Program-made: the position numbers and the translations under genes
Shown: positions 8,031-8,172 of the stretch, piece after piece
How positions within the stretch are numbered: position 1 is the first letter of the stretch
Layout of the letters: each line of letters begins with the position of its first letter
IMG/VR virus record: IMGVR_UViG_3300031998_000016
Strand: one strand, 5' to 3'
DNA length: 20,000 nucleotides
DNA from: an uncultured virus (IMG/VR IMGVR_UViG_3300031998_000016)
Taxonomy: Duplodnaviria; Heunggongvirae; Uroviricota; Caudoviricetes
The notes under the pieces: generated by a model
Seen by the model: only the letters and a program-made list of their open reading frames with translations
What the model was told of the DNA's origin: nothing
Database searches by the model: none

Positions 8031-8172
8031 TGCCCCCACCCAGAGTTGAACTGGGATAGACAGATTAGAGCAAAAAATGAGAATCGAACTCATATTTCAA
8101 ACCATTCGGCTCAAAGTTTTACATTAAACTATTTTCACAAAGTCTGCTATTCTACCATTGAATTATGGGAGC
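8031..8172 (-). tRNA. interrupted tRNA (outer) with a ~70-nt tRNA-like insert in its anticodon loop; isotype undetermined
   Basis: GCTCCCA/TGGGGGC acceptor, ATTC/GAAT D stem, GCAGA/TCTGT anticodon stem, CCCAG-TTCAACT-CTGGG T arm. Confidence 0.8.
8069..8138 (-). other. nested tRNA-like module (inner)
   Basis: GTGAAAA/TTTTTGC acceptor, GTTT/AAAC D stem, TTGAGCC-GAAT-GGTTTGA arm, ATGAG-TTCGATT-CTCAT T arm. Confidence 0.75.

Follow-up and report, generated by a model that had tools for sequence, protein, structure and literature searches.

In this study, we analysed a stretch of 20,000 nucleotides (nt) from an uncultured virus of the Caudoviricetes (IMG/VR record IMGVR_UViG_3300031998_000016), here called the window, and found a transfer RNA (tRNA) gene at positions 8031 to 8172 that carries a second, tRNA-shaped module in its anticodon loop. 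Comparison with uninterrupted homologues identifies the outer gene as tRNA-Lys(UUU), interrupted by an insert of 71 nt and left with a normal 7-nt loop when the insert is taken out. For tRNA genes of bacteria and their phages, self-splicing introns are, to our knowledge, the only kind recognised, and tRNA splicing that depends on proteins is regarded as typical of archaea and eukaryotes. The insert is without a ribozyme core and lies inside the anticodon of what is, in a complete relative of the phage, the only tRNA-Lys; an enzyme-driven path of removal is therefore implied. We propose that the insert is spliced out by enzymes that process tRNA ends and that a phage ligase seals the exons, a proposal to which we give about an even chance.

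Layout and fold of the nested gene

ARAGORN, run with introns allowed (-i), called a tRNA-Lys(ttt) with a 71-nt intron at c[8031,8172]; in its default mode no tRNA was called at 8031-8172. An earlier note on this DNA had described an outer tRNA with all four stems around a tRNA-like module, and the sequence is as claimed there, with the intron-permitting call and the predicted fold in agreement. The outer gene folds into a four-stemmed cloverleaf whose D and T loops are canonical, and 21/21 of its pairs are standard in three distinct sequences. In the minimum-free-energy fold of the 142 nt, the acceptor stem and T arm of each of the two parts are recovered, together with the anticodon stem of the outer tRNA and the D arm and hairpin of the insert (z-score -2.04; 5 of 200 shuffled sequences fold as well). 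Each of the 45 proposed pairs is of a standard kind both in the window and in G002, a complete 180.6-kb relative with terminal repeats. The insert alone matches the Rfam tRNA model RF00005 at 8069-8138 with 36.7 bits (gathering score 29) over model positions 1-71, and ARAGORN reports it as a tRNA with a 2-nt 'anticodon' at 80-85% of the default score threshold.

The same split gene was found in an independent assembly, at L005:4530-4672 of G002, with 93.5% identity over 139 nt. Because of this second copy and of the uninterrupted homologues described below (L131, L132), chance and misassembly are excluded on these comparisons. Since default ARAGORN misses the split gene, phage tRNA sets are under-counted where default bacterial tRNA finders, which miss such genes, are used.

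Identity of the outer tRNA and edges of the insert

A search with the 3' exon found uninterrupted homologues in two complete phages of about 136 kb each (L131 in G003 and L132 in G004). In both, the D and T arms are identical to those of the window and the loop reads CTTTTAA, which is tRNA-Lys(UUU). The loop of the window reads CTTT, 71 nt and TAA; the insert thus lies between U35 and U36, and the spliced loop would be the 7-nt CUUU-UAA. The insert begins with G and ends with C, whereas the exon letter next to each end is T; the edges, 8138 to 8068, are therefore unambiguous. The earlier note had given the insert as 70 nt (8138-8069), had expected an 8-nt loop from exact excision, and had left the identity between UCU (Arg) and UUU (Lys). 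The homologues lengthen the insert by one nucleotide, replace the 8-nt loop with one of 7 nt, and decide for UUU against UCU. Both tRNA-Arg(UCU) and the 8-nt loop are excluded because the homologues carry CTTTTAA, and the window also has a tRNA-Arg(tct) elsewhere in the array.

In one RNA-library contig (run X5) of the intronless homologue, 8059-8138 are skipped and 9 letters separate 8139 from 8058. We rejected it as a spliced product because its stem letters and flanks are of the intronless type, unlike those of the window; it represents a relative's gene of the type seen in L131 and L132.

Anatomy and origin of the insert

The Lys insert consists of a 7-bp acceptor stem, a D arm, an 8-bp hairpin capped by GAAT, a T arm with the loop TTCGATT, the discriminator T and one C. 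This bears out an earlier description, in which a GAAT-loop hairpin stood for the anticodon arm, and the Rfam score given above agrees with it. An anticodon arm with a 7-nt loop is absent from this insert and from the second one described below, and Rfam leaves the hairpin part unaligned. By its predicted fold the insert is tRNA-like, not a tRNA. Because it is without an anticodon loop, the suggestion that it serves as a decoy for anticodon nucleases is unlikely. It is identical to the tRNA-Gly(UCC) of G002 at 51 of 71 positions, and the D arm and the variable-plus-T region are nearly the same. The insert was thus probably derived from a tRNA, with tRNA-Gly(UCC) of G002 as its closest relative. 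It appears to have retained the parts that are read by tRNA end-processing enzymes, namely the 7-bp acceptor, the T arm and the D arm, and to have lost the anticodon loop.

Two known classes of intron were considered and rejected. A group I intron needs about 200 nt or more against the 71 nt found here, as had been pointed out before, and there is no match to a catalytic core; no intron or ribozyme family of Rfam matched the insert at E<=10 or positions 4000-14000 at E<=1. An intron of the bulge-helix-bulge (BHB) type is excluded by the absence of that motif, by the position 35/36 instead of 37/38, and by the absence of tRNA_int_endo among the 199 open reading frames (ORFs) of at least 90 amino acids (aa) in G002. 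Neither a reverse transcriptase nor any protein like RNase Z or EndA appeared in the same set of ORFs.

Conservation in a complete relative

The exons of the window and of G002 differ at 8 of 71 positions; 8/8 differences are in stems, none is in a loop, and no pair is broken. The insert is identical at 68 of 71 positions. Its three differences, read from the window to G002, are a hairpin G-U that becomes A-U, an inner acceptor G-U that becomes G-C, and the discriminator. Both stem changes preserve pairing, and the G3-U70 pair and the discriminator are not conserved. The flanking 680 nt are 83.6% identical, and two proteins, the TROVE protein and a second one, are 82% and 84% identical to those of the window. 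When the window, G002 and the intronless form were compared, 111/111 cells were paired, against 39-53% in slid controls. In five pairs, all of them in the outer acceptor and anticodon stems, both partners have changed, and three of these pairs separate the two interrupted genes. A search of related phages for the same nested layout with compensatory changes had been suggested as a check, and G002 provides both the layout and pair-preserving double changes.

Of the 27 tRNAs that ARAGORN called in G002, the split gene alone is a tRNA-Lys, and all 20 amino acids are covered when it is included; ARAGORN labels this copy Arg(tct). The codon AAA is the third commonest in G002 (40 per 1000).

A second insert in tRNA-Asp

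A second insert is carried by L006, a 4.6-kb contig of a near-identical strain with 98.2% and 99.4% identity to the window in its flanks. Its tRNA-Asp(GUC) is split by 70 nt between U35 and C36 (loop CTGT, insert, CTA). The exons are identical to the uninterrupted tRNA-Asp of G002 (34/34 and 40/40) and match the uninterrupted tRNA-Asp of the window. The Asp insert matches the Rfam tRNA model with 39.5 bits over L006:1937-2003, followed by CCA, and spans exactly +1 to A76 of the tRNA-like fold. In place of the anticodon arm it has a 6-bp hairpin with a GAGA cap. Both types of insert sit at 35/36 of their host tRNA, Lys or Asp. They have only the D arm in common, and its motif is frequent among ordinary tRNAs of AT-rich phages as well.

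An HNH endonuclease gene ends 2 nt before the split tRNA-Asp, and the segment composed of tRNA-Asn, the HNH gene and the split tRNA-Asp stands in place of the Asp-Asn segment of the window. As judged from this arrangement, the swapped segment has the pattern of an endonuclease-driven cassette, and the inserts appear to behave at the DNA level as mobile cassettes linked to homing endonucleases. In the window, the Lys insert has only a short NUMOD1 ORF nearby, 1.1 kb away, against 2 nt for the HNH gene of the Asp insert. As a side observation, the tRNA-Asn(GUU) upstream of the HNH gene (L006:1184-1274; 91 nt; Rfam 52.2 bits) has a variable arm of 23 nt, which is unusual for a class I tRNA, and replaces the ordinary 75-nt tRNA-Asn of the window.

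Candidate ligase and RNA-repair genes

The ORF at 16960-18096 had been taken for a phage ligase of the Rnl1 type, and profile matches confirm this: Pfam PF09511 (5e-19, 69.5 bits, cut-off 28.3), PHROG 562 (6.3e-52) and the T4 RNA ligase 1 structures 2C5U/5TT6 (1.2e-8), with 'KIDGS' aligned with the T4 KxDG motif. As regards the C-terminal domain for tRNA specificity, the PHROG 562 profile was covered over 30-360 of 377 positions, but the phmmer match to T4 Rnl1 spans residues 33-262 only. Rnl1 was found in G001 and G002 and not in the complete intronless phages G003 and G004, where G001 is the record nearest to the window, a 77.5-kb viral contig estimated to be 43% complete. Rnl2 was found in G002 only, and G003 has RtcB instead. 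Ligases for 3'-OH and 5'-phosphate ends are thus present in the intron-bearing phages, and none was found in the two complete intronless ones. G002 also has an RNA-repair set that consists of a kinase plus HD domain protein (polynucleotide-kinase-like), cREC_REC, a Thg1-like 3'-5' polymerase, a metallophosphoesterase, the Rnl2-type ligase and a PIN-PhoH protein.

Proposed splicing path

RNase P leaves a 3'-OH on the leader and RNase Z leaves a 5'-phosphate on the trailer. T4 Rnl1 seals nicked anticodon loops of tRNA-Lys, and its substrate is a 3'-OH and a 5'-phosphate end. The following path would combine these activities. The precursor would fold as two stacked cloverleaves. Host RNase P would cut at +1 of the inner acceptor and release exon 1 ending in CUUU-3'OH. 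A 3' tRNA-processing nuclease would cut after the inner C74 and leave exon 2 with a 5'-phosphate on UAAUCUG; this cut would fall one nucleotide beyond the point where RNase Z usually cuts, in an N73-C-U context like that of many ordinary tRNA genes here. The two halves would be held together by pairing of the outer acceptor and anticodon stems, until the ATP-dependent ligase of the phage (Rnl1, and also Rnl2 in G002) seals the nick to give the loop CUUUUAA. The anatomy of the gene gives an exact rule for this: cut at the inner +1 and after the inner C74 or CCA, then join.

The 5' edge fits a cut by RNase P. In both types of insert this edge coincides with +1 of an acceptor stem of 7 bp that has a G1-C72 pair and is preceded by a U at -1, and the inner acceptor stacked on the 5-bp T stem is a feature that fits RNase P. 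The junction between the outer and inner parts is an internal loop between two helices, of 4 x 5 nt in Lys and 4 x 7 nt in Asp. The 3' edges, fixed by the uninterrupted alleles, lie after C74 in Lys and after CCA76 in Asp. Among the 23 ordinary tRNA genes of the window, 10 have an N73-C-T trailer (often C-TTAAT), 2 have CCA, 8 have T at 74 and 3 have A at 74; in G002, C is found at position 74 in 15 of 26 tRNA genes. Since N73-C-T and CCA occur in ordinary genes, the enzyme that trims ordinary tRNAs meets the same junctions as those at the insert ends. According to the part of a published account that we consulted (PMC7479834), most RNase Z enzymes require that the 5' end be mature, the Thermotoga enzyme cuts just after CCA, and the E. 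coli and mammalian enzymes have activity related to this after-CCA cutting. A 3' tRNase may therefore make the second cut. Altogether the mechanism seems plausible at the 5' cut and at the ligation.

Several points weigh against this path, and the first of them concerns the 3' cut. The canonical RNase Z cut, after the discriminator, would make the Lys loop 8 nt and the Asp loop 10 nt long. Because these loops are too long by 1 nt and 3 nt, the 3' cut needs a non-canonical site or another enzyme. From the idea of the earlier note that RNase P, RNase Z and the ligase act together, the 5' edge at +1 and the ligase in the phage stand, and the standard RNase Z cut does not. Bacillus-type RNase Z is inhibited by CC and CCA trailers, according to the same part of that account (PMC7479834). 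The elbow of the inner tRNA may also be weak, because the inner D loop has a single G. The co-occurrence of ligases and inserts is weak evidence, because it sets two lineages against two, and the G002 ligases are equally well explained by ordinary repair of nuclease-cut tRNAs, because the kinase-HD protein, the phosphoesterase and the Thg1-like protein are present. Over 71 positions each, the insert has 3 differences and the exons have 8; the insert is thus the less diverged part, and it may have entered both lineages after their split, the later entry by homing. If so, the covariation of the exons predates the insert and says nothing on selection for the interrupted gene. The Lys insert is found in two independent lineages only and the Asp insert in one contig only. 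Finally, no contig of this phage over 8031-8172 was found in 4 RNA-library runs (9 listed), which is no evidence either way.

If the path is correct, RNase P would be a splicing endonuclease, and the phage Rnl1 and Rnl2 would gain a constitutive substrate besides damage repair. A further proposal is that these phages have a third kind of tRNA splicing, not known from bacteria, in which a tRNA-shaped intron inside the anticodon would be taken for a tRNA by host RNase P (at its +1) and by a 3' tRNase (at its C74 or CCA end), and a phage ATP-dependent ligase would join the exons. The intron class would spread as DNA with free-standing homing endonucleases, and it may arise if this ligase inserts a mature tRNA-like RNA at a break in an anticodon loop. 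This wider proposal is tentative, and we put it somewhat short of an even chance.

Alternative explanations

Selfish insertion linked to homing endonucleases, in which the tRNA gene is inactivated without splicing, the host tRNA-Lys is used, and the shape reflects only a tRNA origin, is unlikely but has to be weighed. It would agree with the absence of spliced RNA from the RNA-library runs, with the swapped cassette in which the split tRNA-Asp lies 2 nt downstream of the HNH gene, and with a Lys insert that looks younger than its exons. The insert ends, C74 and a full CCA (which only 2/23 ordinary genes encode), resemble the ends of mature RNA. The Asp exons are identical to the intact allele; because of this identity, the Asp insert is recent and proves nothing on function. 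Inactivation is harder to reconcile with the split tRNA-Lys, which is kept without a loop change or a broken pair, be it in exons or insert, in two phages of 82-84% protein identity and without which the G002 set covers 19 amino acids. Besides, both inserts begin exactly at the acceptor +1, which is needless for inactivation.

Splicing may also be carried out by a dedicated endonuclease of another kind that measures from the outer tRNA and cuts both strands of the loop at 35/36, with RNase P and RNase Z uninvolved and the inner fold serving as a handle or in some other role. Both inserts indeed share the outer site 35/36 even though their 3' ends differ on the inner fold (C74 against A76). Most G002 ORFs belong to no known family (159/199 are without a Pfam match at E<=1e-4), and the PIN-PhoH protein is present. 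However, no EndA-type or other candidate splicing endonuclease was seen among the 199 ORFs, the BHB geometry is absent, and the coincidence of the 5' edge with the inner +1 in two unrelated inserts would be left to chance. We consider this explanation improbable.

It is considerably more doubtful that the inner tRNA-like RNA is the product that matters, for example as a Ro60-like ligand, with the outer tRNA as a carrier for its transcription and precise release. YrlA-type Y RNAs have a topology opposite to that of the nested insert, which weighs against it. The insert is the best-conserved part of the gene (68/71), a TROVE/Ro60 gene lies 4 kb away, and bacterial Y RNAs mimic tRNA, according to the part of PMC4201824 consulted. 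On the other hand, neither the discriminator nor the G3-U70 pair is conserved, the two insert types have no more than the D arm in common, and the outer exons are still a perfect tRNA whose D and T arms are identical to those of the intronless homologues.

The least credible explanation is exact 70-nt excision to a quadruplet reader with an 8-nt loop or a trimmed tRNA-Arg(UCU), or else an artefact of assembly or recombination: a cut after the discriminator would give CUUUCUAA, and ARAGORN labels the G002 copy Arg(tct), but the uninterrupted homologues read CTTTTAA, the window already has a tRNA-Arg(tct), the same rule gives a 10-nt loop in Asp, and the layout recurs in independent assemblies.

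Searches for further cases

Patterns for the cores of the two inserts found, among viral contigs, only G002 for Lys and only the contig of L006 for Asp. A BLAST search of 7950-8540 against 50,697 phage records gave three records, which matched the tRNA-Val end only; the neighbouring protein at 7367-7726 gave 0 loci in viral contigs; a T-arm/junction pattern gave three loci, none of them nested; and a metagenome scan for an interrupted Lys exon gave one match, an ordinary tRNA. Rfam found no free-standing copy of the insert in 80 kb of G002. Two viral contigs met with the T-arm/junction pattern, L002 and L003, hold another tRNA-like module: both have at 2870-3030 a structured region that terminates in a minihelix resembling a tRNA, with the T arm GTGAG-TTCGATT-CTCAT plus a 6-bp acceptor-like stem and no ARAGORN tRNA call.

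The D-arm motif common to both inserts was found at at least 121 loci, and ARAGORN -i made 29 intron calls among the matches listed. These include 8 calls of >100 nt, and the sorting covers the classes of 58-93 nt and 30-53 nt. Among the matches listed, all 13 calls of 58-93 nt are fusions of neighbouring tRNAs. Of the 8 calls of 30-53 nt, also among the matches listed, two (L057, L117) are fusions of two plain tRNAs and one (L093) overlaps a plain tRNA-Leu; the other 5 have no plain call beneath them, and one of these (L053) looks like a repeat. The remaining four (L021, L064, L114, L128) may be further small phage tRNA introns.

Other features of the window

The features are collected in Table 1. 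ARAGORN in default mode found 23 tRNA genes in the window, which form a minus-strand array, and no further tRNA was found in the remaining 59.5 kb of G001. G002 has, off its main array, a tRNA with the anticodon CTA (G002:C1:120615-120689, L140:615-689), an amber suppressor that ARAGORN labels Pyl and that hints at TAG recoding in part of the genome. For tRNA-Val(tac), ARAGORN -i gives as an alternative Cys(aca) with a 2-nt insert, and likewise in G002.

The 291-nt stretch between tRNA-Val and the split tRNA-Lys folds with -80.4 kcal/mol (z -1.75) and has a shorter version in G002. Both of its ends are covered by RNA-library contigs, one of which swaps the middle (126 nt skipped, 94 other letters). 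A repeated element of 50-70 nt with TTGACT and TATAAT boxes is apparently a phage promoter family with many copies in G002; one copy sits directly after the split tRNA-Lys. The NUMOD1 ORF matches Pfam NUMOD1 (7e-7) and PHROGs 7168/314/5123 'homing endonuclease' (4e-11 to 2e-8), adjoins tRNA-Ala and is kept in G002 (L141:13366-13848). Rfam found no Y RNA near the TROVE gene or in the window.

In a sheep-gut RNA library (run X2), a 623-nt contig of a close relative (depth 355) jumps back 588 nt over the ROOL RNA, from 9440 to 8853. The contig is thus a circular permutation with 30 nt of overlap, which is what assembly of a circular or head-to-tail ROOL RNA would yield. One ROOL/GOLLD structure review, in the part searched for 'circular', has no mention of a circular ROOL.

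Table 1. Coordinates of the features discussed. Positions without a prefix are those of the window.
Feature	Position	Strand	Remarks
Interrupted tRNA-Lys(UUU) gene	8031..8172	-	71 nt once insert removed; ARAGORN -i, uninterrupted homologues
Exon 1, 34 nt	8139..8172	-	Acceptor 5' strand, D arm, anticodon-stem 5' strand, C32 U33 U34 U35
Insert (putative intron), 71 nt	8068..8138	-	tRNA-shaped; discriminator T = 8069, C74 = 8068
Exon 2, 37 nt	8031..8067	-	U36 A37 A38, anticodon-stem 3' strand, variable loop, T arm, acceptor 3' strand, discriminator A
Uninterrupted tRNA-Asp(GUC)	6094..6166	-	ARAGORN; L006 allele carries second tRNA-shaped insert
HNH endonuclease ORF	L006:1310-1900		Ends 2 nt before split tRNA-Asp; PHROG 2255 2.7e-24; Pfam HNH_2 2e-4
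Rnl1-type ATP-dependent RNA ligase, 378 aa	16960..18096	-	Candidate exon sealer
G002 RNA-repair set	L139:18930-19889, L140:3612-3950, L140:5007-5816, L140:10103-10777, L140:14721-15608, L137:13307-14527
tRNA genes with N73-C-T trailer (examples)	9695-9769, 9857-9947, 9995-10068, 10074-10147
tRNA-Arg(tct)	9995-10068		Ordinary gene (ARAGORN default)
tRNA-Val(tac)	8464-8537	-	Rfam 37 bits (low); acceptor stem with mismatch
Non-coding stretch, 291 nt	8173-8463	-	Between tRNA-Val and split tRNA-Lys
ROOL RNA	8848-9431	-	Rfam 293 bits; directly after tRNA-Leu (9443-9517)
TROVE/Ro60-like gene	2384-4072	-	Pfam 3e-9; PHROG 850 9e-49; within phage tRNA/RNA-repair region
NUMOD1 ORF	6473-6958	-	Short, homing-endonuclease-like; N-terminus GIY-YIG-like; 1.1 kb downstream of split gene
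TTGACT/TATAAT element copies	7957-8028, 13142-13215, 11921-12014, 16284-16352, 19751-19824, 2076-2173, 4527-4602, 10735-10803, 7215-7277
Candidate 30-35-nt anticodon-loop inserts, unrelated phage contigs	L021:394-498, L064:640-760, L114:211-325, L128:221-325		ARAGORN -i

Comparison with known systems

Introns of archaea and eukaryotes, which are removed by EndA/Sen and sealed by RtcB or Trl1, resemble the present case in that a short intron in the anticodon loop is removed by proteins and sealed by a ligase, as proposed here. They differ in that the present insert has no BHB, lies at 35/36 and not at 37/38, and has no EndA homologue found in G002; the expected ends are also different, 3'-OH and 5'-phosphate here against 2',3'-cyclic phosphate and 5'-OH there. 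Bacterial group I introns in tRNA anticodon loops, such as those of cyanobacterial tRNA-Leu(UAA) and tRNA-fMet, are ribozymes of >200 nt and often mobile. Here, too, a bacterial-type tRNA gene is interrupted in the anticodon loop, but by 71 nt that match no intron or ribozyme family of Rfam.

In mascRNA of MALAT1, mitochondrial tRNA punctuation and plant t-elements, tRNA shapes that do not decode direct RNase P and RNase Z to free the flanking RNAs. The flanks are not rejoined in these systems, whereas here they would need ligation to make a tRNA. In T4, Pnkp and Rnl1 repair the tRNA-Lys(UUU) cut by PrrC, where the break comes from a host defence nuclease and the ends need healing. The phage described here likewise has an Rnl1-type ligase and would have an anticodon-loop break in tRNA-Lys(UUU), but this break would be programmed and its ends ligatable.

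In collaborative homing, as in cyanophage psbA and T-even phages, an intron without its own endonuclease goes together with a free-standing homing endonuclease, and those introns are self-splicing group I introns. The free-standing HNH gene of L006 similarly adjoins the intron-bearing tRNA-Asp, and the cassette appears to replace the intronless allele of an otherwise near-identical genome.

The closest likeness by description is to the tRNA introns of Lak megaphages (Devoto et al. 2019, PMC6784885), of which one 'may encode a tRNA' and which exist as alleles with and without the intron; the consulted part of that report gives no mechanism. These 'enigmatic' introns, according to the same part of PMC6784885, share with the present case a phage tRNA gene interrupted within its anticodon loop by a short insert that does not look self-splicing, a portion that resembles a tRNA, and the existence of both interrupted and uninterrupted alleles. 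Their sequence is nearly invariant between samples, like the near-invariant insert here (PMC6784885, as far as consulted). They differ in length, 23-141 nt in Table S6 of PMC6784885 as far as consulted, and one has extra sequence 5' of the tRNA-like part. The insert here is solely a tRNA-like fold of 70-71 nt, with edges at +1 and at C74 or CCA76 and with the site 35/36. The phage here is also different, at about 180 kb, and an HNH gene and ATP-dependent ligases go with the insert. Literature searches found no published explanation of tRNA-shaped introns, and the tRNA-shaped phage intron is a kind rarely noted and unexplained. If the proposed path is true, the 'enigmatic' introns of Lak megaphages would be explained as well. 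New in this study are a minimal insert that consists only of the tRNA fold, exact edges from natural alleles of two tRNAs, a shared site at 35/36, and covariation in the host tRNA.

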